Positions 5,200 through 64,000 of a DNA stretch of 64,000 bases are shown here, one piece after another (position 1 is the first letter of the stretch; each line of letters begins with the position of its first letter). Both the position numbers and the translations under genes were made by a program. The stretch comes from Candidatus Magasanikbacteria bacterium CG10_big_fil_rev_8_21_14_0_10_47_10 (GTDB lineage Bacteria; Patescibacteriota; Patescibacteriia; Magasanikbacterales; UBA922). The stretch is taken from the NCBI GenBank assembly GCA_002773135.1, contig PFCB01000022.1:7591-71590 (forward strand), given 5' to 3'. Under the pieces are notes generated by a model that worked only from the letters and a program-made list of their open reading frames with translations, was not told the DNA's origin and searched no databases.

Positions 5200-6294
5200 A
5201 TGGGAAAAGATTACTACAATACACTCGGCGTTGAAAAAGGCGCAACTGATGAAGAGATAAAGAAAGCCTTTCGAAAGCTTGCGCATAAGTATCACCCGGA
5301 TAAGCCGACCGGAGACGAGCAAAAGTTCAAAGAAGTGAATGAAGCTTATCAGGTGATTGGGAATACAGAAAAGCGCAAGCAGTACGACCAATATGGCGCG
5401 ACCTTTGGCCAACAGGGCGGTTTTGGCGGCGGCATGAATTGGGAAGACTTCATGCGGGCGACACGCCAAGGTGGGGGTGGCGCAAATTTTGACTTTGGTG
5501 TTGACCTGGGCGATATTTTTGGTGACCTTTTTGGATTTGGCGGTGGGCGGAGCCGAGGCGGGCGGGGACGTGGAAGGGATATTCAAGTTGATGTTGAATT
5601 AACCTTCAAGGAAGCTGTCTTTGGAGTTGAAAAAGATCTTCATCTCACAAAGAATAACGCGTGCGCAGTGTGCAGCGGTTCTGGTGCAGAGCCCGGATCG
5701 GATAGAAAAAAATGTGATACATGTCATGGTCAAGGGCAGGTGCGGGTGGTTCAGAGAACCATTCTTGGCGATATGCAATCAGCGCGAGTGTGTACCGCAT
5801 GCTCAGGCGCGGGAGATATTCCAGAAAAGCGCTGCAAACATTGCAGCGGTGCTGGTGTTGAAAAAAGTAGCACATCGCTAACTGTAAAAATTCCTGCTGG
5901 TATTGATAATGGGTCATCGATACGCTTGACAGGCAAGGGGGAATATGGTGGCCCGGGATCAAGCGCAGGAGACCTGTATGTGGCCGTCCATGTTCACGAG
6001 GATAAAAGATTTGTCCGTCAGGGAGATGATATTTTGACAGAAGATACCATATCGTATCCCCAGGCAGTGCTTGGTGATACTATTGATATTGAAACAATTG
6101 ATGGAACCAAGCAGCTTGTTATTCCTTCCGGCACTCAGTCGCATCAACAATTTCGTCTCAAAGGTTTGGGTGTGCCGCATTTGCGTGGCAGCGGAAGAGG
6201 GGATCAGTATGTTCGTGTGAAGGTAGATGTGCCAAAGAAGCCGAGCAGACATGCAAAAAAATTGATTGAGGAGCTCAAAAATGAGCTACAATAA
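5200..6294 (+). CDS. dnaJ: molecular chaperone DnaJ
   Basis: J-domain with HPD ([11 protein letters not shown]), a G/F-rich linker, and four CxxCxGxG zinc-finger repeats. Confidence 0.95.
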
Positions 6295-6303
6295 GCAAAA
6301 AAA

Positions 6304-6338
6304 CAAAAAAACAGGCTTGACAAAGACCTGTTTTTTTG
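6304..6338 (+). terminator. intrinsic terminator after dnaJ
   Basis: aaacagg...cctgttt stem followed by a T7 run. Confidence 0.5.
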
Positions 6339-6385
6339 TTATTGTAATTTGTCCAAACTGCGTTGGACGTACCAAGGAGATTCTC

Positions 6386-6862
6386 GTGATCACGATCATT
6401 CTCGCTGTCCTGCTGGCTGTCGCCATGGCGTTCGCCGCCTTCTTGCTCAAGGAGATGTTCAAGAAGTTTGACTTCATGGCCGAGTTCCTGAGGAGCTCGG
6501 CGCTTATGGTGCACTATCGGCACGATGGGGAAGTCCGCGGGATGCAGAACATCGTGCTGAGGGGCAATGAGCCGTTCTGTGTGCTCGTCGGGTTCAAGAT
6601 GGTGCTCCCGGTTCTGGGGAACGTCGGGTTCGACTACTTCGGATTCGTTCGGTCGAACGACGACGGTGTGGCTGTCATCTGCACCTACCTCGGCTCGGGG
6701 TCGTGCGATTTTATCTTCGTCGCCGATTGTGACGTTGACATCAACCCGATCACAGCATCCTCGACGACAGAGGACCAGCAGCTCCAGCCGGATGTACGGT
6801 ACCCGCCGCACCCGCTGCTGCAGGTGCTGCCGGACAAGCTGAAGATGTTGTTCAACAAGTAG
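6386..6862 (+). CDS. GC-rich hypothetical membrane-anchored protein (compositionally foreign)
   Basis: GTG start 5 nt after AAGGAGA. N-terminal TM (VITIILAVLLAVAMAFAAFLL). GC about 58-60% with very high GC3, against about 45% in the flanks. A hairpin follows the stop. The antisense ORF 6275-6967 would clash with rnhA. Confidence 0.5.
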   Translation: MITIILAVLLAVAMAFAAFLLKEMFKKFDFMAEFLRSSALMVHYRHDGEVRGMQNIVLRGNEPFCVLVGFKMVLPVLGNVGFDYFGFVRSNDDGVAVICTYLGSGSCDFIFVADCDVDINPITASSTTEDQQLQPDVRYPPHPLLQVLPDKLKMLFNK

Positions 6863-6881
6863 GAACAGGGAGGAAGGAGAC

Positions 6882-6912
6882 GAAAAAAGCCCTCGAATCA
6901 TCGGGGGCTTTC
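6882..6912. terminator. bidirectional hairpin between convergent genes
   Basis: agccc...gggct stem flanked by an A-run and a T-run. It lies between the GC-rich gene (+) and rnhA (-). Confidence 0.4.
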
Positions 6913-6929
6913 GCAATGTTACACGTTCC

Positions 6930-7331
6930 TTACATGCGCGCATCAAGCGTTTTGTTGACCTCGGCATCGGCCAGCTTATTGTACTCGCGGCGAATATGCT
7001 TTATGGACCAAGGCTTGAATTCCTGAAGCGCATTGTACGCCTGGACAAATAGCTTTTGCAGTGTCGGCTCTTTTACTTTCCATCGTCCGTTCAGCTGCTC
7101 AACAACAAGTTTACTATCCAATCGGCACTCCACACTTGTTGCGCCAAGTGTTTTTGCTCGTTTCAGTCCGGAAATAATTGCTGAATACTCTGCATAATTA
7201 TTTGTCTGATGACCCAAAAAATCGCCATAGGCAGCCAGCGTTTTACCGGCTGTATCATGAATAACAACACCGGATGCAGAGGGACCGGGATTGCCCCGAG
7301 ATCCGCCGTCCGCGTAAATGATACATTTCAT
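6930..7331 (-). CDS. rnhA: ribonuclease HI
   Basis: 133 aa; the RNase H fold signature (IIYADGGSRGNPGPSASG...NNYAEYSAIISGL...) is obvious. Confidence 0.9.
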   Translation of the reverse strand: MKCIIYADGGSRGNPGPSASGVVIHDTAGKTLAAYGDFLGHQTNNYAEYSAIISGLKRAKTLGATSVECRLDSKLVVEQLNGRWKVKEPTLQKLFVQAYNALQEFKPWSIKHIRREYNKLADAEVNKTLDARM

Positions 7332-7334
7332 AGG

Positions 7335-9098
7335 TTACTTCTTTTTAAGATCAACAATTGTCATTTGTAATTCACGGTTGCCATTCCACTCATTGACACC
7401 AATTTCAAAAACTATATCAAGCACGTCTCCCTTCGACAGTTCACGACTCCAGTCTATCTCTCCACTGCACAAGTTCCAGCCGATTGTTTTGCGAATTGTG
7501 GTAGAGGTATGAGTGATCATGATTCGAAGGTGCTTGCCTTCCTTGCCCACAGGTTCGACACCTACAACAGTTACGTTCTGTGCTAAATATTTCGGCTCCT
7601 CATTTGCCTGACCAAATGGTTTAAATCGGCCAAGTAATTCATAGAGCCCCCAATTTACTTGTTCCAAATCAATCTGGGCATCAATTTTTATCGTCGGTGT
7701 CAAATCAATATCTTTTGTCACGTCTAAAAAATAATCGATAAATGCATTTTCAAATTCTTCGCGAATATCTGGCGATGCAAGGGTAAAACCGCATGCCATT
7801 GGATGGCCGCCAAATTTGGAAAAAAAATGCGGCATCTGTTGCAGCGCCTCAATCATATTGAACCCCTCAACACTGCGGCCTGAACCCATAAACTCAGAAT
7901 CGTCCTTCATGGTCATCGCAAAAACAGGTTTTTGGAATTCATTTTTTATCTGGCTTGCAATCAGACCCACAACCCCACTGGCCCAACCGGGTGCATACAC
8001 AAACAATACTGGTTTATCCATTTGTTTCTGACGTACTTGCTGAATTGCCTCAGTCACAAATTCGTCTGTCATGCGTCTTCGCTCATCATTACTTTGGTTG
8101 AGTTGCCATGCCAAATCCACGGCTTCTGTGCCATCTTTTGTCACCAGCAGCTGATACGCTGTATTGGCATGGTCAAGGCGTCCAGCAGCATTAATTCTGG
8201 GCGCAATGCGAAAGCCAATGGTTTGTGCATCAAGTTCGCGCGTGAGTGATCCGTCTTCATTCATTAGGCGTGCCTCCAAAAGAAGCTTTTGCAGGCCGAT
8301 ACGTTTTGTTTTGTTTAAAACAATAAGTCCAAAGGTTGTCAGAGTCCGTGATTCACCGACAAGTGGCACCATGTCCGCAACACTGGCGATGGCTACCATG
8401 TCGAGCAGCCATTTTTCAAATGCTTCATGATTTTCACCACTTTCAAGAAGTTCATTTTTTTCAGCATGGGTTCTGAGCAGTGCTTGCGCAAGTTTAAATG
8501 CAACACCTCCGCCAGCCAAATGTTTGTACGGGTACGTTTCACCTTCGACTTTTGGATGAATAATGGCAAAGGCAGGAGGGAGTCTTTCTGGAATGCTATG
8601 GTGATCAGTAATAATTACGTCTATCCCTTTTTCGTTGGCGTATTCAACCTCTGCTGTATTACTAATACCACAGTCGCACGTGATGATCAGCGATGTTTCT
8701 TGCGCATGTAGCAGATCAATTGTTTTCATGTTCAGACCATAGCCATCAGTTTCTCTGTGCGGCAAAAAAACGTCAACCGCAGTTGCTCCCAATGCGTGCA
8801 GTGTGTCTGTCAAAATAACCGATGCGCTCACACCGTCGGCATCATAATCTCCATGAATGGTTATTTTTTCATTTTTCTTAACCGCATCAATCAACCGCGA
8901 AACAGCCTTCTTCATGTCTTTAAATAAAAAAGGATCATGAACATGGCAGGTATAATCAGGATTCAGAAATTCGTCAATTGCATCCTGCGTGCGGATGTCT
9001 CTGTGATATAACAATGAGGCAACAGTTCGAGGCAGCTCTGGAAATTGCTCAAAAAAGCTATCTGGCGGAGAGGGGAGGACGTCCCAGCGTTTTTGCAT
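7335..9098 (-). CDS. recJ: single-stranded-DNA-specific exonuclease RecJ
   Basis: 587 aa; DHH (ITIHGDYDADGVSAS...DHH) and DHHA1 motifs. Lies immediately upstream of rnhA on the same strand. Confidence 0.9.
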   Translation of the reverse strand: MQKRWDVLPSPPDSFFEQFPELPRTVASLLYHRDIRTQDAIDEFLNPDYTCHVHDPFLFKDMKKAVSRLIDAVKKNEKITIHGDYDADGVSASVILTDTLHALGATAVDVFLPHRETDGYGLNMKTIDLLHAQETSLIITCDCGISNTAEVEYANEKGIDVIITDHHSIPERLPPAFAIIHPKVEGETYPYKHLAGGGVAFKLAQALLRTHAEKNELLESGENHEAFEKWLLDMVAIASVADMVPLVGESRTLTTFGLIVLNKTKRIGLQKLLLEARLMNEDGSLTRELDAQTIGFRIAPRINAAGRLDHANTAYQLLVTKDGTEAVDLAWQLNQSNDERRRMTDEFVTEAIQQVRQKQMDKPVLFVYAPGWASGVVGLIASQIKNEFQKPVFAMTMKDDSEFMGSGRSVEGFNMIEALQQMPHFFSKFGGHPMACGFTLASPDIREEFENAFIDYFLDVTKDIDLTPTIKIDAQIDLEQVNWGLYELLGRFKPFGQANEEPKYLAQNVTVVGVEPVGKEGKHLRIMITHTSTTIRKTIGWNLCSGEIDWSRELSKGDVLDIVFEIGVNEWNGNRELQMTIVDLKKK

Positions 9099-14356: not shown

Positions 14357-14456
14357 AACAGTATCTATGATAGCAGAATTGGCACTGAATTGGTAGGCTG
14401 GTAATTTGTTTGGTATAGTAACCTGTAAAGCAGTATTATTAAGATCAACGGACAGT

Positions 14457-15812
14457 ATGAAAGTCACTTTTTTTGGTGCGGCGCATCAGGTTACCGGGTC
14501 GTGTCACCTTATTGAAACAAAGACAAAGCGTATATTATTTGATTGCGGCATGTTTCAGGGAGGTAATTATAATGAGGGCAGAAATGCAGATGCATTTCCG
14601 TTTGACCCGTCTGAGCTTGATGCTGTTTTTGTAAGTCATGCACACGCAGATCACAGCGGACGTGTGCCAAAGCTCATACGCGATGGATACGCTGGCGCGG
14701 TATACATGACGAAAGGCACTCGGGAGCTGGCGAAAATTATTTGGGATGATTCGCTCTCAATCATGCGGTATGACAATGAAAAATTTCAGCGGCCAATTTT
14801 GTTTGATGAACATGATATTGATGAGGCCTATGGCTGCTGTGATGGTGTGGACTATCATCAAAAAATTGACCTGGGTGACGGAGTGACTGCACTATTTAAA
14901 GATGCGGGGCATATATTTGGCTCATCCTTTATAGAGCTTCATGCAGACGGCAAAACCCTAGCATATTCCGGTGATTTGGGCAATAAGAATGCCCCAATCG
15001 TGCGTCCTACTGAAATGCTTGGGGAAATAGACGTACTTCTTATAGAATCAACCTATGGGGACAGACTTCATGAACCAGAGGGGCACAGAAAACAGCTTTT
15101 GCTTGATATTGTAAAAAAGGGGATAGCAAATGGAGGTGTGATTATGATGCCGGCCTTTTCCATAGAACGAACACAGGAAATTTTGTATGATTTGGATCAA
15201 CTCAAAGAGCACGATAAGACACTACCAAATTTACCGATCTACCTGGACAGTCCAATGGCTATTAAAGCGGGCAAAGTATACAAAGAATTTCCAGAGTACT
15301 ATGACGAAGAGGCTGCTCAGCAATATAAAATGGGTGATGATTTTTTACATTTTGACGGTTTGGAAGTAACACCATCTCGAGAAGATTCAAAGCGCATCAA
15401 TCATTCGCCAAATCCAAAGATGATAATCGCGGGAGCTGGCATGATGAACGGTGGGCGGATATTGCACCATGCGAAGCGATATTTACCAGATCCTGCATCG
15501 CTTCTTGTTTTGGTTGGATATCAGGCGCAGGGAACATTGGGTCGCAGATTGTACGAAGGTGCAGAGGAAGTTGAAATACATGGTGATAGAATTCCTGTTC
15601 GTGCAACGGTCACTGCTATTGGCGCGTTGTCAGCGCACGCAGATCAAGATAAGTTGGTTGATTGGGTTCGTTCAGCAAAAAAAACACCGGCAAAGGTGTA
15701 TTGTGTTCATGGCGAGCCGCATGCATCAACTGAGCTTGCTCATCGATTAAAAAAAGAAATTTCAGGTTTAGAAGCATTTGTTCCAGAAGAAGGGGAGACG
15801 GTTGAAATTTGA
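14457..15812 (+). CDS. MBL-fold beta-CASP ribonuclease (RNase J/CPSF-like)
   Basis: HxHxDH motif (SHAHADHSGRVPKL) plus a beta-CASP and RNA-specificity domain architecture, about 450 aa. Start taken at ATG 14457; the 14406 start is TTG. Confidence 0.75.
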   Translation: MKVTFFGAAHQVTGSCHLIETKTKRILFDCGMFQGGNYNEGRNADAFPFDPSELDAVFVSHAHADHSGRVPKLIRDGYAGAVYMTKGTRELAKIIWDDSLSIMRYDNEKFQRPILFDEHDIDEAYGCCDGVDYHQKIDLGDGVTALFKDAGHIFGSSFIELHADGKTLAYSGDLGNKNAPIVRPTEMLGEIDVLLIESTYGDRLHEPEGHRKQLLLDIVKKGIANGGVIMMPAFSIERTQEILYDLDQLKEHDKTLPNLPIYLDSPMAIKAGKVYKEFPEYYDEEAAQQYKMGDDFLHFDGLEVTPSREDSKRINHSPNPKMIIAGAGMMNGGRILHHAKRYLPDPASLLVLVGYQAQGTLGRRLYEGAEEVEIHGDRIPVRATVTAIGALSAHADQDKLVDWVRSAKKTPAKVYCVHGEPHASTELAHRLKKEISGLEAFVPEEGETVEI

Positions 15813-15844
15813 TTGCCTGGGTGAGCAATACAAATCAATCCATA

Positions 15845-16085
15845 GCTGCAGCCGTCGAGGTGTCGTTCCAGATGGTGAGGATACGACCTTCTCGATGCTG
15901 AGGATTGCCGCGCTGACTATTGTGGCACCTCTACCGCCACAAACTGTATTGATCACCCAGGGGTTCTCTCCTACCGCGTCATCGCGTCCTCCGGCCTGCT
16001 TGCCCGCCAGCGCGATGAACCCAACTGTGGTATCAGCGTACCAAGTCAGGCATGCAGGGACATCTGCGCACCCTCGGAAATGCGC
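15845..16085 (-). pseudogene. rhodanese-like gene remnant (no start codon)
   Basis: The minus-strand frame reads ...LEHWIIAHFRGCADVP...ENPWVINTVCGGRGATIVSAAIL..., resembling the rhodanese GHIPGA and active-site Cys-loop motifs. An in-frame TGA precedes it and there is no ATG/GTG/TTG start. It lies in a GC-rich island. Confidence 0.25.
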
Positions 16086-16133
16086 AATTATCCAATGCTC
16101 TAATCATATCAATCAGTTTGAATTGAAGCAAAC

Positions 16134-16160
16134 AAAAAAGCACCAATATGGCGCTTTTTT
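16134..16160. terminator. bidirectional intrinsic terminator
   Basis: aaaaaagcacc-aatat-ggcgctttttt: a GC core stem flanked by an A6 and a T6 run. Confidence 0.55.
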
Positions 16161-16448
16161 GTTCCGTCTATCTGCTAGAAGTAACAAAGAGAGGGGAATT
16201 GGGTGATACCGAAGTACCACCCGTGTGGGATTTACTAGGTTCCCGAACCTCTGTTAGCACGCCGCATCTGCCGTTGCAGATGGCCACAATGCGGCGAGAG
16301 CCGACAGTGGCGACCTATGTCGCCTTCACGCGGGATAAACCCGCGGAGCGTAGATTTCTCCACGCTCGCCAATGGCCAGGCATTGAATGCCGGGCACAAC
16401 TTTGGCGAGATACGTATCTCATCAGAGTTGTGCCTGTCACTTACTGAC
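16135..16448 (-). ncRNA. candidate structured ncRNA (about 310 nt) of unknown family
   Basis: On the minus strand it is bounded by a TTGACA-16-TATAGT promoter and the 16134-16160 terminator. The sequence is GC-rich, has no credible ORF in any frame, and carries at least 7 consecutive short hairpins (e.g. ggcgac-atag-gtcgcc, cgcggg-tttat-cccgcg, catctgc-aacg-gcagatg, cacaact...agttgtg). Confidence 0.35.
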
Positions 16449-16454
16449 CACTCA

Positions 16455-16482
16455 CTATAACAGACAATTATCATTCTGTCAA
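16455..16482 (-). promoter_or_regulatory. sigma70-like promoter driving the candidate ncRNA
   Basis: Minus-strand TTGACA (16482-16477), a 16-nt spacer, then TATAGT (16460-16455). Confidence 0.45.
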
Positions 16483-16639
16483 GTACTGCCAGCCTCTGTG
16501 GTGTGAATAACTAGAATATTGGCTTATTCTATCCAATTTTATCCATGATCATACCACCTTTGCAGATGGAATAGTCACGGGTGAGGTTGGGCAAGCAACC
16601 TCTGACCCTCCAATTGTACCCCTCTTGCCAGGGGCAGAC

Positions 16640-16891
16640 CTACGTGTGGTCGTTAAAGCCGTCGAGCGGGTCCTCGTCACGTCGCAGTGCGATTCGCGCC
16701 ATGTGCTCACAGGCGACGCCCAGTGCTACGCAGAGGAGCACGACTGCGGTAAAGAACCAGTTGACGGCGATGTTCGTCACATAGGCGTACCAGGCGAGGT
16801 ACATCGCGCCACCCAACAGCCCGAAGGCCACCAGGTAGAGCACAGTCGCTGCCGCGATCTGTGAGGGTCGCAGCCCTTTGTGCTTGTCCAT
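16640..16891 (-). CDS. GC-rich small two-TM membrane protein (hypothetical)
   Basis: 83 aa (MDKHKGLRPSQIAAATVLYLVAFGLLGGAMYLAWYAYVTNIAVNWFFTAVVLLCVALGVA...). Strong SD (GGAGA with a 4-nt spacer). Very high GC3. Confidence 0.55.
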   Translation of the reverse strand: MDKHKGLRPSQIAAATVLYLVAFGLLGGAMYLAWYAYVTNIAVNWFFTAVVLLCVALGVACEHMARIALRRDEDPLDGFNDHT

Positions 16892-16931
16892 GTTTTCTCC
16901 TTCTTGATGGACATCCCACCATACTATATCT

Positions 16932-16960
16932 TTGTAAACCTGTCAAGATTATGATACAAT
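16932..16960 (+). promoter_or_regulatory. sigma70-like promoter upstream of the 17002 gene and uvrB
   Basis: TTGTAA, a 17-nt spacer, then TACAAT, in an AT-rich spacer following the GC-rich island. Confidence 0.45.
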
Positions 16961-17001
16961 AATTGCGCTAAAACTAAATAAATATAATCCACAAATTGCA
17001 T

Positions 17002-17685
17002 ATGCCTGAGCGAATTATATCCGGAAAAGAAATTTTTGCGCTTAGACTTATAGATCAACATTCTAATAAAGTTTTGGCTGATAATCCCGGTATACTTGAC
17101 GATATCGCCGGTGGAGAGCTAAGTACAGAAGAGATTGCTATAAAGTATGAGGTTGCGCGCAAATATGGTGTTACACCTGAAATTGCTAAATCCATCATCA
17201 AGGGCATAGGTCAGCGTGAATTTTCTGCTGAAGAAAGAGCTAAAATTTTTGAGCCCAGGGTGCGTGAGAGTAGGCAGCGTGGAGGATATACAACATTGGC
17301 CGCAGGAACTGGAGTACATGGACTAACAGAGTCACAGCGACGAGATGCCTCACACAAGGCTGGTTCGGTCGCAGGGCCGCAGAGTTATAAAGAGAGATTT
17401 GGTTTGTTTGGGCTGGACAAGGAGACCCTAAGAAAAAGGATAGCGAGCAGTATGCGGGGGAAAGAAACTAGTTGGTTTAATCCCAACAATGTTCGCGATG
17501 GCAAAACAGAAGCAGAATATGCACTTTTTTTGGTTTCTCAACCAGATTATCAGTTGCACAAGGGAGACGTAGTTTCGCCGGATTACACAAAGATCATGGG
17601 AGCCGTAAACGCAATATTTGGGAGAAATCGTTCTAGGGCGGCAGTGAAGGGTTTTTTTGAAAATGAAAAAATGCGCAATCGTTAA
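17002..17685 (+). CDS. hypothetical protein (unknown family)
   Basis: 227 aa from ATG 17002 (the ORF at 16996 starts with TTG). Basic and hydrophilic, with no recognisable motifs. Its stop abuts the uvrB start. Confidence 0.5.
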   Translation: MPERIISGKEIFALRLIDQHSNKVLADNPGILDDIAGGELSTEEIAIKYEVARKYGVTPEIAKSIIKGIGQREFSAEERAKIFEPRVRESRQRGGYTTLAAGTGVHGLTESQRRDASHKAGSVAGPQSYKERFGLFGLDKETLRKRIASSMRGKETSWFNPNNVRDGKTEAEYALFLVSQPDYQLHKGDVVSPDYTKIMGAVNAIFGRNRSRAAVKGFFENEKMRNR

Positions 17686-19755
17686 ATGAATATGGAGAGT
17701 CTGAAGTTTAAACTTCAATCACAATACAAACCAGCAGGCGACCAGCCACAGGCCATAGAAGGCCTTGTTTCTGGTTACAAAAATGGCATGAAGCGACAGA
17801 CCTTGCTTGGGGTAACCGGATCAGGAAAAACATTCACCATGGCAAATGTTATTCAACAAACGCAACTGCCAACGCTTGTTATTGCACACAACAAAACACT
17901 GGCCGCCCAGCTATGCAATGAGTTTAGAGAATTTTTTCCAAACAATGCGGTTGAGTACTTTGTGAGTTACTATGATTATTACCAGCCAGAGGCGTACATG
18001 CCGGGTTCTGATACATATATAGAAAAAGAAGCGCAGATCAATGAAGAAATTGATCGCCTGCGCCACGCGTCTACTCAAGCCATTTTATCTCGCAAAGACA
18101 CTATTATCGTGGCGTCTGTTTCTGCTATTTATTCTCTTGGGTCGCCAAAAGAATATGAAAGCAGTGTGCTCCATTTGGAAAAAGGGCAAAAATTGGATAG
18201 ACGCAGCATGCTGGAGCGGCTGGTAGAAATGCAGTTTGAACGAACAAATGCGGATTTGACGCGTGGAACATTTCGCATGCACGGACAAATTTTTGATATC
18301 ATGCCGGTGAATGAGGAGCGGGTGTACAGATTTGAAATAGGGGAGGAGATTAACGCGATTGAACGGATTCATCCAGTATCAAGAAAAATTCTGAATGAAC
18401 TGCAAGACGCATGGATTTTCCCTGCCAAGCATTATGTCGCGACGCCGGCACAGCGAGAACGCGCAATAAAAAGTATTGATGCTGAATTAGTTAATCAGCT
18501 TGCTTTTTTTAAAAAAAGTGGAAAAGTGTTAGAACACGAACGATTAAAACGACGAGTAAAGTATGATATTGAAATGATTCGCAATGTTGGATACTGTAAT
18601 GGTATAGAAAATTACTCGAGCCATTTTGATGGAAGGGCGCCGGGCGAGGCTGCCTATACACTGCTTGATTTTTTTCAGCATGGTGCTGGTGAATACCTCA
18701 CGATTATTGATGAATCGCATGTGACTGTCCCGCAAATTGGTGCTATGTATCGCGGTGATCGTGCACGAAAAGAAACTTTGGTTGAACATGGGTTTCGATT
18801 ACCAAGTGCAAAAGACAACAGGCCGCTCACATTTGAGGAGTTTGACGAACGGGTTAAAAAAATTACATATGTTTCTGCCACGCCAGCAGAATATGAACTG
18901 AAAATCGCAGAGCAAGTGGTGGAGCAGATTGTACGGCCAACCGGCCTTATTGATCCTGAAGTGATCATTTGCCCTGTGACAGAAACAAAGACCAATGCAT
19001 CTCAGGTTGATGATGTGATTATGCGGATTCAAGAGCGAGTTGCTTCTGGCGAGCGCGCATTAGTGACAACACTGACCAAACGTATGGCAGAGGATTTGAC
19101 TGAGTTTCTCGACAAAAAAGGACTAAAGGTTACATATCTGCATAGCGACATTAAGACAATTGAGAGAATAGATATTATTGGTAAGCTTCGGAAAGGCGAA
19201 GTAGACGTCATTGTGGGTGTGAACTTGCTTAGAGAAGGACTGGATATTCCCGAGGTTTCTCTTGTGGCAATTTTGGACGCGGATAAAGAAGGATTTTTGC
19301 GGAGTGAAACAAGCCTTATTCAGACAATTGGTCGTGCAGCGCGGAACGTGAATGGGCAAGTGGTGATGTACGCAGATCACAGTACCGGATCCATTCAGCG
19401 TGCGATAGCTGAAACAGACCGACGCCGCACCGTGCAACTGGCGTATAATAAAAAACATGGCATAACACCAAAGACAATTGAAAAAGCAATTCGGAATATA
19501 TTGGAAGAATTTGGAATAGATACTGTGCAATCTGCAAATGGCATGAACGCGCGAAAAAAAGGAAGAGGAAAACGTGAGAGTTCTATATTGGAGCTCGATT
19601 TAATTGGTGATGCAAGGCCGATAGCAACAATTATTAAAGACAAAGAATCAAAAATGAAAGAGGCTGCAAAAAATTTGGAATTTGAATTAGCTGCAATTTT
19701 GCGCGATGAAGTGCGGGAGCTTCGGGCAAGAGAGAGGACAGGAGAGAAATTATGA
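17686..19755 (+). CDS. uvrB: excinuclease ABC subunit B
   Basis: 689 aa; Walker A (GVTGSGKTFTMANVIQ), helicase motifs and a C-terminal UVR domain. Confidence 0.95.
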   Translation: MNMESLKFKLQSQYKPAGDQPQAIEGLVSGYKNGMKRQTLLGVTGSGKTFTMANVIQQTQLPTLVIAHNKTLAAQLCNEFREFFPNNAVEYFVSYYDYYQPEAYMPGSDTYIEKEAQINEEIDRLRHASTQAILSRKDTIIVASVSAIYSLGSPKEYESSVLHLEKGQKLDRRSMLERLVEMQFERTNADLTRGTFRMHGQIFDIMPVNEERVYRFEIGEEINAIERIHPVSRKILNELQDAWIFPAKHYVATPAQRERAIKSIDAELVNQLAFFKKSGKVLEHERLKRRVKYDIEMIRNVGYCNGIENYSSHFDGRAPGEAAYTLLDFFQHGAGEYLTIIDESHVTVPQIGAMYRGDRARKETLVEHGFRLPSAKDNRPLTFEEFDERVKKITYVSATPAEYELKIAEQVVEQIVRPTGLIDPEVIICPVTETKTNASQVDDVIMRIQERVASGERALVTTLTKRMAEDLTEFLDKKGLKVTYLHSDIKTIERIDIIGKLRKGEVDVIVGVNLLREGLDIPEVSLVAILDADKEGFLRSETSLIQTIGRAARNVNGQVVMYADHSTGSIQRAIAETDRRRTVQLAYNKKHGITPKTIEKAIRNILEEFGIDTVQSANGMNARKKGRGKRESSILELDLIGDARPIATIIKDKESKMKEAAKNLEFELAAILRDEVRELRARERTGEKL

Positions 19756-33787: not shown

Positions 33788-34843
33788 ATGGATAATCCAG
33801 GTTCTATTCCAATTTTTGAAAAAAAGAATGTTGTTATCACAGGTGGCGCGGGATTTATCGGCTCCCACCTGTGTGAGCGGCTGCTTAAAGAGGCAAAAGT
33901 CATTTGCATTGATGACCTTTCAAATTCATCAATAGGAAATATTGAGCATTTGCTGCAGTATCCGGACTTTGAATTTATTAAATATGACGTGAATAATCCA
34001 ATCGATTTGGACGCGTTTGATGAGCTGGATAAATTTAGGGTGAAATATCAAGGGGTTCAGGAAATATATCATCTTGCATGCCCGACAAGCCCAAAAAACT
34101 TTGAGCAGCTTAAAATTCATTCGCTATGGGCAAATTCCATGGCTATGATTTCCACCTTGGATTTGGCGGTGAAATACAAGGCGAAGTATGTATTTGGTTC
34201 GAGCTCCGTGGTGTATGGCTCCCCAACAGAATCAAACACGACATTTTCCGAACCGGAGGAGGGGATTGTCAATCATCTGTCGCCCCGCGCGTGTTATGAT
34301 GAGGGGAAGCGGTTTGCCGAGACCTGCGTTGAGACCTACCGCCAGGTGTATGGCATTGACGGTAAATCGGCGCGTATCTTTACGACGTTCGGTCCGAGAA
34401 TGCGCTTGCGCGATGGCTTGCTCATCCCTGATTTCATCATTAATGCGCTTGACAGCAGGGATTTGACTATTTACGGTGACGGGCTCATGTCGCAAACATT
34501 TGTCTATGTCAGTGATGTTGTGGATGGACTGGTACGGCTTATGCAGTCCGGCCCGGATATATCAATTGTTAATCTGGGGTCAGACCATCTTATAAATGTT
34601 TCTGAGGTCGCGCAAAAAATTATTCAAATGACCCAGTCGCAGTCAAAAGTCGTTTTTGAGAAAGAATTGATTTTTTTAACAAAAAAAGGTATCCCGGATC
34701 TGCAAGTTGCAAAAGAGAAACTTGATTGGATTCCGCTTGTCCTTCTTGAAGATGGCCTGCGAAAAACGATTGACTATGCCATAGCCAATAAATCCGCGGT
34801 TACCCTGGGGGATGCCCCCGGCGGTCAAGGCTCATTGTCATAG
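33788..34843 (+). CDS. NAD-dependent epimerase/dehydratase (UDP-glucuronate decarboxylase-like)
   Basis: Rossmann motif GGAGFIGSHL and a UXS-like length and motif arrangement. Start at ATG 33788. Confidence 0.8.
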   Translation: MDNPGSIPIFEKKNVVITGGAGFIGSHLCERLLKEAKVICIDDLSNSSIGNIEHLLQYPDFEFIKYDVNNPIDLDAFDELDKFRVKYQGVQEIYHLACPTSPKNFEQLKIHSLWANSMAMISTLDLAVKYKAKYVFGSSSVVYGSPTESNTTFSEPEEGIVNHLSPRACYDEGKRFAETCVETYRQVYGIDGKSARIFTTFGPRMRLRDGLLIPDFIINALDSRDLTIYGDGLMSQTFVYVSDVVDGLVRLMQSGPDISIVNLGSDHLINVSEVAQKIIQMTQSQSKVVFEKELIFLTKKGIPDLQVAKEKLDWIPLVLLEDGLRKTIDYAIANKSAVTLGDAPGGQGSLS

Positions 34844-34854
34844 GAGCCTTGTTC

Positions 34855-35532
34855 GTGATACGCTCTGGCTGTATGTTTCTTGCTATTGTACCAGCGTACA
34901 ATGAGGCGCCGCGTATAGGTTCCGTTATCCGGAGCCTTTTTGCGCATGTGGACCGAGTTCTCGTCGTGGATGATGGATCCACCGATGAGACGGCACGAGT
35001 CGCCGGGGAGCTGGGTGCCCATGTTATTATTCACCGCGTAAATCGTGGTCAAGGGGCGGCGCTGGAAACGGGGCACGCCTATGCTCGTCTCATTGGAGCT
35101 GAGTATGTTCTGCATTTTGATGCGGATGGCCAATTTGATGCAGCGGATGTTTCAGGCGCGCTTCAACAGTTGCGCGAGCAGAACGCGGATATCCTGCTCG
35201 GATCTCGTTTTATGGATGTACGCTCAAGGGTTCCCTGGACAAAGCGACACCTGATACTGCCCATCGGCAGACTGATTCACCGTTTCGTGTTTGGAGTACA
35301 CCTGTCGGACGCGCACAATGGCTTTCGAATACTCAACAAGCAGGCAATCGAGTTGCTTCACATTACACAAGACAGGATGGCGCACGCGACAGAGATTCCC
35401 GCTCGCGCGCAGCGGCTGCGACTACGAATTATTGAACACCCTGTCCGCGTCACATACCATACATATGGACAGGGTATTAAAGGCGGCATGAACGTAGTGA
35501 AGGATTTATTATTTAGTCGGTTTGTTAAATAG
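34855..35532 (+). CDS. family 2 glycosyltransferase (polyprenyl-phosphate sugar synthase-like)
   Basis: IVPAYNEAPRIG...VDDGSTDETA signature. Start ambiguous: GTG 34855 has an SD; ATG 34873 is the alternative. Confidence 0.8.
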   Translation: MIRSGCMFLAIVPAYNEAPRIGSVIRSLFAHVDRVLVVDDGSTDETARVAGELGAHVIIHRVNRGQGAALETGHAYARLIGAEYVLHFDADGQFDAADVSGALQQLREQNADILLGSRFMDVRSRVPWTKRHLILPIGRLIHRFVFGVHLSDAHNGFRILNKQAIELLHITQDRMAHATEIPARAQRLRLRIIEHPVRVTYHTYGQGIKGGMNVVKDLLFSRFVK

Positions 35533-63378: not shown

Positions 63379-63464
63379 AAAAACCCCGACGATTCAGGAT
63401 CTTTTCAATGCTCCCGAGGGTCTCCAGGCCTCGGGGTAGGTGGTGGGACGCGATCAGAGATCGC

Positions 63465-64000
63465 CTAGCACGGAAGTGCGGCCCGTTCATAGCTATACGG
63501 CCAAGGAATGTCCAGCCGATCAAAGATATCGTGCCAGTTCCCGGCGACCATGATACCGTCCGGCACCGCGGGCGTGTCCGCGTCACAGGCGTCGTCTTCG
63601 AGAATGAAGGGACGGCGGCCGTACATGACGCGCTTGAGCTGCAGCATGCCAATGCCGGTCAGATCCGGCAGGCGTGCCGACACAAGCGCGCTCAGCCCCT
63701 GCTGCCGCACCACAGTGTCGGTCACCGCCGTCCCGCTGAAGCAGACCACATTCCGCGCCGACAGCTTGCAGTCGGCTAGCAGATGCAGCTCACCCAGCGT
63801 CGCCCCCAGGTCAAGAGCGACCCGCATGGCGTTGCCGCGGTTCATGGCGTTCATCTGCTCGATGGGCGCGAGGAGACGGACGTTATCCGGCCCCAACCGC
63901 TCCACCAGTCGGCGCAGTGGCATGTGGCACCGTCCGCTGCGGACCGCGTCCCTGTACGGATGCGACCCTCTGCCGTCCGTCGCAAGAAGCAGCCCGGGCA
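63465..64000 (-). CDS. GC-rich hypothetical protein, N-terminus beyond the window
   Basis: The minus-strand frame stays open to the window edge (...PGLLLATDGRGSHPYRDAVRSGRCHMPLRRLVERLG...GNWHDIFDRLDIPWPYS*). GC is about 65%. There is a vague resemblance to metallophosphoesterases. Partial gene. Confidence 0.35.
   Translation of the reverse strand, partial: PGLLLATDGRGSHPYRDAVRSGRCHMPLRRLVERLGPDNVRLLAPIEQMNAMNRGNAMRVALDLGATLGELHLLADCKLSARNVVCFSGTAVTDTVVRQQGLSALVSARLPDLTGIGMLQLKRVMYGRRPFILEDDACDADTPAVPDGIMVAGNWHDIFDRLDIPWPYSYERAALPC

Follow-up and report, generated by a model that had tools for sequence, protein, structure and literature searches.

The stretch of DNA analysed here, 64,000 nucleotides (nt) that we call the window, originates from an uncultured Candidatus Magasanikbacteria genome (Candidate Phyla Radiation, CPR/Patescibacteria), a "CG10_big_fil_rev" metagenome-assembled genome (MAG). 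Between a gene for a beta-CASP ribonuclease (RNase) and uvrB, it carries a GC-rich islet at positions 15813-16900, and our analysis makes it quite probable that this islet is lineage-specific foreign DNA. With somewhat less certainty, we conclude that the islet encodes a real small membrane protein, sp83, and an independently transcribed structured RNA on the minus strand. As a fuller account, it appears reasonably likely that a horizontally acquired, lineage-specific minus-strand islet with modular cargo resides at the beta-CASP/uvrB junction.

An earlier note on this DNA had regarded the segment as acquired, and this view is supported by synteny, by the absence of similar sequences from the loci of relatives, and by the codon composition of sp83, which lies beyond the native range. 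Related loci were collected from species-representative genomes and from metagenomes, and the nearest RNase among them is just 64% identical. The gene order CorA, hyp256, beta-CASP, UvrB is conserved in these loci: UvrB follows beta-CASP in all 18 Magasanikbacteria loci that have both genes and that correspond to about a dozen distinct lineages (some are present in both collections), and CorA and hyp256 precede the pair in nearly all loci examined. The spacer between the beta-CASP gene and uvrB measures from -4 nt (an overlap) to 1456 nt in the relatives, with 28-170 nt in most of them, as compared to 1873 nt in this window. The earlier note had expected the RNase gene of relatives to be followed directly by the gene that starts at position 17002 (the 17002 gene). 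The relatives have uvrB in this place instead, and the conserved order identifies uvrB as the ancestral neighbour of the RNase gene. Given this order, the short spacers and the lack of a counterpart in relatives, we conclude that both the islet and the 17002 gene are insertions. Comparison with the related loci by blastn, tblastn, nhmmer and covariance models revealed no counterpart of the islet. Nor did we find an allele with an empty site: all contigs with an identical RNase or UvrB carry the identical islet.

The base composition of the islet is atypical for the window. The segment 15813-16900 has a GC content of 53.6%, a value that is reached by 0.5% of 1088-nt windows, as compared to a mean of 47.3% for the entire window and to 43.7% and 43.9% in the left and right flanking genes, respectively. 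The sharp rise of the GC content behind the RNase stop codon and its drop near ~16900, both claimed in the earlier note, were thus borne out by the windowed calculation. The islet is not uniform. It consists of three GC-rich blocks that are separated by AT-rich signal regions: block A (15813-16100) with 56.2% GC is followed by a terminator region with 35.6% (16100-16200), block B (16200-16420) with 57.9% by a promoter region with 40.4% (16420-16580), and block C (16580-16900) with 60.7% by a region of divergent promoters with 30.7% (16900-17000). Such an abrupt change in composition might also result from an assembly chimera or from a contaminating fragment joined to the contig. This explanation can for practical purposes be dismissed: a segment of 3.3 kb that spans both islet junctions is 100% identical in six assemblies (ENA, JGI and Logan; several samples), and the agreement of six independent assemblies shows that the islet did not arise from assembly.

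The right part of the islet, block C, holds the gene for sp83, an open reading frame (ORF) for 83 amino acids (aa), with the following signals:

16946..16918, minus strand: promoter P1, TTGACA-17-TATGGT, 10 of 12 matches, predicted to drive sp83 (promoter scan)
16897..16902, minus strand: Shine-Dalgarno sequence AAGGAG, 5 nt before the ATG of sp83 (direct sequence reading)
16891..16640, minus strand: sp83 ORF, 83 aa, GC content of 0.80 at the third codon position (GC3) (ORF list, hydropathy, codon-position GC)
16483..16639, minus strand: AT-richer 3' untranslated region (UTR) of sp83 with a stem-loop at ~16583-16602 that lacks a U-tract

As judged from hydropathy, sp83 has two hydrophobic helices at about residues 12-30 and 41-59, and its N- and C-terminal flanks are basic. 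The GC contents at the three codon positions are 0.64, 0.41 and 0.80, indicating a strong codon periodicity. Together with the AAGGAG sequence, promoter P1 and the two hydrophobic segments, this confirms the earlier description of a well-signalled small protein gene with two transmembrane segments. The GC3 of 0.80 is outside the range of all 51 native genes (mean 0.473, standard deviation 0.048, maximum 0.56), and even among 782 native windows of 84 codons the maximum is 0.69. The sp83 region has a fold z of about 0 relative to shuffled sequences, as expected for a coding sequence, and the value for its 3' region (16483-16639) is about -1. A word-indexed search of 5.8 billion protein clusters returned sp83 alone, and there was no match in PHROGs, PADLOC, phages and plasmids (tblastn) or viral contigs; the Pfam matches were weak, below every cut-off, and correspond to generic membrane-helix noise. 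Its predicted properties mark sp83 as an orphan small membrane protein with foreign codon composition. Only this GC3 can serve as proof of foreign origin, since the GC contents of blocks A and B are explicable by RNA structure.

Could the islet be a native, vertically inherited spacer with fast-evolving small RNAs and ORFs, in which selection for RNA structure has raised the GC content? In AT-rich bacteria, structured RNAs are known to stand out as long intergenic regions of high GC content (PMC6429828, PMC8723152), and two related loci provide parallels. The spacer of locus L002 (7354-8306) comprises 953 nt with 51% GC in a genome of 37% GC. It contains two minus-strand modules, each composed of a promoter, a structured RNA and a terminator as in block B: in the first, a TTGACA-17-TATATT promoter precedes a GC-rich RNA of ~520 nt (z = -5.6), and in the second the RNA has ~170 nt (z = -6.4). 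In locus L003, the spacer contains an ORF for a membrane protein of 211 aa and, directly upstream of uvrB, a GC-rich block (8125-8800; 52-57% in a genome of 40%) with a minus-strand ORF for a membrane protein of 154 aa, which has a GC3 of 0.64 versus 0.32 for native genes and an AGGAGG ribosome-binding site. Moreover, it is mainly the nearer relatives that have the longer spacers, and there is a faint similarity between sp83 and the L003 ORF (E = 0.019 in a single comparison), which is unconvincing for membrane helices. However, RNA structure does not explain the GC3 of sp83, a coding region with a fold z of about 0 and a composition far beyond that of native genes. In addition, the spacers of the different lineages have no detectable similarity in sequence or structure to each other or to the islet (tblastn, tblastx, blastn, nhmmer, covariance models), and they do not exceed 170 nt in most lineages. 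It is because of the parallels in L002 and L003 that we retain a native spacer as an alternative at all, and we regard it as unlikely.

Some further observations were made on these loci. The larger L002 module exhibits a mild codon-like periodicity at ~7594-7900. The L002 spacer corresponds to no Rfam family, with generic sub-threshold matches in a permissive scan; at gathering level, Rfam gave nothing across 11 related loci, and the 154-aa ORF of L003 has no family match. The spacer of a third locus, L008, contains a gene for an amidotransferase-like protein of 422 aa. L002, L003, L008 and others are titled "uncultured Gammaproteobacteria bacterium" yet have the gene order of Magasanikbacteria, and these labels look wrong; the RNase and UvrB proteins of these MAGs are 59-63% and 66-72% identical to those of the window, respectively.

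Acquisition of GC-rich DNA may not have been a single event. A second GC-rich islet of ~63% GC is present at 63381-64000 (extending to ~64040; 8070-8715 in locus L170), 47 kb away from the first and directly behind a gene for a UvrD/PD-(D/E)XK helicase-nuclease. It contains a minus-strand orphan ORF of 189 aa with a GGAGG ribosome-binding site and GC contents of 0.70, 0.47 and 0.80 at the three codon positions, for which no Pfam, PADLOC, phage or plasmid match was found. Its GC3 of 0.80 equals that of sp83, which points to more than one uptake from a GC-rich source of a similar kind. Together with the spacers of the relatives, this circumstantial evidence suggests that GC-rich DNA was taken up repeatedly, perhaps at a permissive or preferred junction. 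A region at 6266-6967 with 57% GC contains overlapping ORFs on opposite strands, of 198 aa (plus strand, GC3 0.76) and 230 aa (minus strand, GC1 0.71).

Several points weigh against the acquisition of a modular islet, and they were considered in our assessment. The GC content of blocks A and B is by itself no proof of foreign origin, nor is it decisive, because in AT-leaning genomes, structured RNAs have a raised GC content even if no transfer has taken place. The beta-CASP/uvrB spacers of L002 and L003 are GC-rich as well, which could mean that the element is old and evolves rapidly. No genome with more than 64% RNase identity is at hand that could show the empty site. Searches of proteins, phages, plasmids and viral contigs revealed no donor, homologue or mobility gene for the islet, and the donor lineage that the earlier note had hoped to find by sequence search was not identified. 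There is no tRNA nearby, and flanking repeats are 10-12 nt long and at chance level. Finally, the RNA is represented by a single sequence, and both its structure and its expression are predictions.

The islet shares important features with small acquired genomic islets, i. e. the absence from the syntenic position in relatives, an atypical base and codon composition, orphan genes with promoters of their own, and a location in a variable spot with different cargo in each lineage. It differs from them by its size of only ~1.1 kb and by the lack of an integrase, a transposase, a tRNA target, flanking direct repeats and an identified donor. Among the neighbouring genes with a family match there was no integrase (the full ORF list was not annotated gene by gene). 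An integron attC site was considered for a 67-nt palindrome in block B. This reading is unsupported; as judged by eye, GCACAAC/GTTGTGC is one position off the consensus RYYYAAC/GTTRRRY.

Downstream of sp83, block B and its borders have the predicted signals of an independent small RNA gene:

16482..16454, minus strand: promoter P2, TTGACA-17-TATAGT with TG extension (extended -10), 11 of 12 matches (promoter scan)
16165..16447, minus strand: block B, body of the structured RNA gene (fold stability, no periodicity, no Rfam family)
16131..16163, minus strand: intrinsic terminator hairpin with a 6-bp GC stem (direct reading; inverted repeat I3, folds on both strands)

A sigma-70-type promoter and an intrinsic terminator thus bound a non-coding segment, and the earlier claim of a hairpin-rich transcript that extends from promoter to terminator turned out to be correct for the minus strand. 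Transcription from P2 is predicted to start at ~16447, resulting in a transcript of ~315 nt (~16447 to 16131) that forms a chain of stable predicted hairpins. Among them are the imperfect palindrome of 67 nt (16381-16446) and two further stems, one with a GAAA cap at 16346-16367 and one with a C(UUCG)G cap at 16201-16222. Directly 5' of the terminator, the RNA has a CU-rich stretch. The terminator hairpin lies between runs of A6 and T6 and is hence formally bidirectional; it favours the minus strand, since a pair that is G.U on this strand becomes an A.C mismatch on the plus strand.

The folding of block B is exceptional. As compared to dinucleotide shuffles, the fold z is -9.9 with the terminator included; without it, the values are -7.9 for the minus and -6.6 for the plus strand. 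As a control, 1276 window-strands across the 64 kb were folded and the stability was regressed on GC. In this GC-corrected scan, the three top-ranking residuals all belong to the minus strand at 16101-16583; the first five all lie within 16001-16583, and four of these are from the minus strand. No other segment of the 64 kb is thus folded as stably as the RNA gene. The next most stable folds, at 501-900, 6201-6600 and 34801-35200 (all on the plus strand; residual z of about -2.9 to -3.3), fall in or near coding regions.

Block B has no three-base periodicity, and a protein search with the spurious 99-aa translation of the region returned only itself. Among the 4227 families of Rfam 15, the only gathering-level match in the window is a tRNA-Gln at 38.9 kb; a permissive scan of 15700-17050 yielded only sub-threshold matches of at most 26 bits, mostly to generic hairpins or terminators, and ARAGORN detected no tmRNA, nor any tRNA in the vicinity of the islet. 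A hammerhead ribozyme reading of the string CUGAUGAG is unsupported, as the Rfam scans gave no hammerhead match. Homologues of the RNA were found neither by blastn and nhmmer against 169 fetched loci, nor by two single-sequence covariance models over 543 kb of related loci, nor by searching viral contigs with five patterns (exact or degenerate), nor by blastn against phages and plasmids. With its length, its GC-rich and non-coding sequence, its exceptional predicted fold, its stable GNRA and UUCG tetraloops and its own promoter and terminator, block B resembles the structured RNAs of GC-rich intergenic regions (PMC6429828, PMC11109978, PMC8723152). In contrast to those RNAs, it matches none of the Rfam families, no conserved motif is definable from one sequence, and it is probably not a conserved RNA of the host but came with foreign DNA. 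As there is only one sequence, no new RNA family can be claimed.

Block A occupies the left part of the islet:

15813..16100, no strand assigned: block A, non-coding, 56% GC, directly past the beta-CASP stop codon
16103..16131, minus strand: weak candidate promoter TTGCTT-17-TATGAT with TGn extension, 8 of 12 matches (relaxed consensus scan)

The candidate promoter was not reported by a stricter promoter scan. Block A is moderately structured (fold z of about -3.2 to -4.3), the minus strand folding somewhat better, and contains a long-range stem, 15816-15832 with 15945-15961, around two hairpins (inverted repeat I2, 17 nt, 94% complementary). The earlier note had distinguished three elements in the islet. 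The hairpin-rich transcript and the gene for a two-helix protein withstood scrutiny, whereas of the third, a minus-strand frame with rhodanese-like motifs and no start codon, only the open frame itself is real: 101 open codons without a start codon (16103..15801). All that block A has in common with the rhodanese domain (PF00581) is a short Cys-Gly-Gly-Arg-Gly string with a loose resemblance to the active-site loop. The frame has no match to any Pfam (E up to 10) or NCBIfam (E up to 1) profile, rhodanese included, an exhaustive phmmer (HMMER) search of 1.84 billion protein representatives gave no match, and the GC contents of 0.55, 0.54 and 0.55 at the three codon positions indicate that there is no codon periodicity. 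A rhodanese pseudogene was thus rejected, and the description of the islet as partly decayed, which depended on it, is unproven.

More generally, blocks A and B might be decayed protein genes of a donor in which the hairpins are incidental. Open frames of ~100 codons without start codons are indeed present in both blocks, in GC-rich DNA in which few stop codons are expected. However, nowhere in the two blocks is there a codon periodicity, of which the adjacent sp83 keeps a strong one. The frame of block A has neither family match nor homologue and the translation of block B lacks homologues, and block B has a near-consensus promoter, a terminator and the most extreme fold of the window. We therefore consider decayed genes to be improbable. 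Block A looks like moderately structured non-coding DNA rather than a recognisable gene remnant, and it may belong to the RNase message as a 3' UTR that extends to the bidirectional hairpin, or be an RNA from the weak minus-strand promoter.

The presence of a small hydrophobic orphan protein beside an independently promoted small RNA gene in an acquired islet is reminiscent of type I toxin-antitoxin systems. In such loci, e. g. hok/sok and tisB/istR, a small hydrophobic membrane protein is combined with a small RNA. The islet, too, would thus be accessory DNA that functions as an addiction module with sp83 as the toxin and the structured RNA controlling its translation or stability, and the CU-rich stretch could in principle mask a purine-rich ribosome-binding site. 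Yet the RNA is encoded on the same strand as sp83 and does not overlap with it, and no extended complementarity exists: the longest match between the RNA and the sp83 message has 12 nt and includes a mismatch. Duplex prediction did not single out sp83, and a target prediction in which the RNA was compared to 52 translation-initiation regions was uninformative. Moreover, sp83 is hydrophobic, but with 83 aa and two helices it is larger than typical type I toxins, and PADLOC and PHROGs gave no match for it. A toxin-antitoxin-like pair of type I, or another kind of addiction module, is therefore a rather doubtful explanation.

Taken together, we favour the acquisition of a modular minus-strand islet, and the events may be pictured as follows. 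The beta-CASP gene and uvrB, adjacent and probably co-transcribed in related Magasanikbacteria, would have been split by the insertion, which brought three modules: (i) P1 and the ribosome-binding site would drive the expression of the two-helix membrane protein sp83. (ii) P2 would drive the synthesis of the hairpin RNA. Neither the terminator scan nor sequence reading revealed a terminator between sp83 and the RNA gene, thus the sp83 transcript probably reads into the RNA gene and stops at the terminator at 16131-16163, which would serve both transcripts. (iii) Block A would contribute ~290 nt of structured non-coding sequence between the terminator and the RNase stop codon, transcribed either with the RNase message or from the weak promoter. 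As a consequence, a terminator and a convergent transcription unit would now separate the RNase gene from uvrB, and the latter, cut off from its former partner, would be served by a promoter at 16932-16960. Concerning the RNA itself, our preferred guess is that it is either a stand-alone small RNA or a structured 3' region linked to the membrane-protein gene. In the first case, it may base-pair via the CU-rich, anti-Shine-Dalgarno-like stretch; alternatively, as the 3' region of the sp83 transcript, it may have a stabilising or regulatory effect.

On the right side of the islet, the junction contains two further features ahead of uvrB (17686-19755):

16932..16960, plus strand: divergent promoter TTGTAA-17-TACAAT with TG, upstream of both the 17002 gene and uvrB (promoter scan)
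17002..17685, plus strand: the 17002 gene (hyp229), encoding a hypothetical protein of 227 aa, abutting the uvrB start codon, outside the GC-rich islet and in the same variable spot

Judging from synteny, this promoter can now probably serve both the 17002 gene and uvrB. The 17002 gene has a low, native-like GC3 of 0.35 and no counterpart in any related Magasanikbacteria locus. Its one homologue (P0003, 38% identity) is encoded in an unrelated neighbourhood (L087) with genes for a NUDIX protein, a methyltransferase and a ParB-N6 methylase. From sequence comparison, the 17002 gene appears as a second, separate accessory and lineage-specific insertion at the beta-CASP/uvrB junction. Two proteins adjacent to the islet are on record as hypothetical proteins (COU35_02790 and COU35_02795).

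The left flank of the islet is the beta-CASP ribonuclease gene itself (14457-15812, plus strand), the product of which contains the Beta-Casp and RMMBL Pfam domains. It had been called RNase J-like. This holds in the loose sense of a beta-CASP ribonuclease, but membership in the RNase J family was rejected (TIGR00649, 13 bits versus a cut-off of 400). It is most similar to CPSF-type beta-CASP models, with scores below the cut-offs of these models. The ORF has two possible start codons, TTG at 14406 (468 aa) and ATG at 14457 (451 aa). The RNase proteins of relatives align from the ATG start (MKxTFxGAAH...), start calls differ between pipelines, and the longer (TTG) call overlaps the divergent 256-aa gene.

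It is tempting to speculate that the ~315-nt RNA, and possibly block A as well, represents an undescribed class of structured RNAs that travels with a membrane-protein gene on GC-rich cassettes, and that the beta-CASP/uvrB junction is a recurrent landing site in Magasanikbacteria. We regard this as a long shot that would fit with the L002 modules, the L003 membrane ORF and the second orphan with a GC3 of 0.80 at a distance of 47 kb. The GC-rich source could be a host or a neighbour organism of this episymbiotic lineage. If the acquisition is true, the islet would be a compact case of foreign DNA that entered a reduced CPR genome, split a conserved RNase-uvrB pair, and delivered a small membrane protein together with a small RNA gene that was ready for use. 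It provides a candidate for an orphan RNA, well bounded and with a very stable fold, from a phylum with almost no known non-coding RNAs, and a hint that one intergenic junction may repeatedly accept GC-rich cargo.

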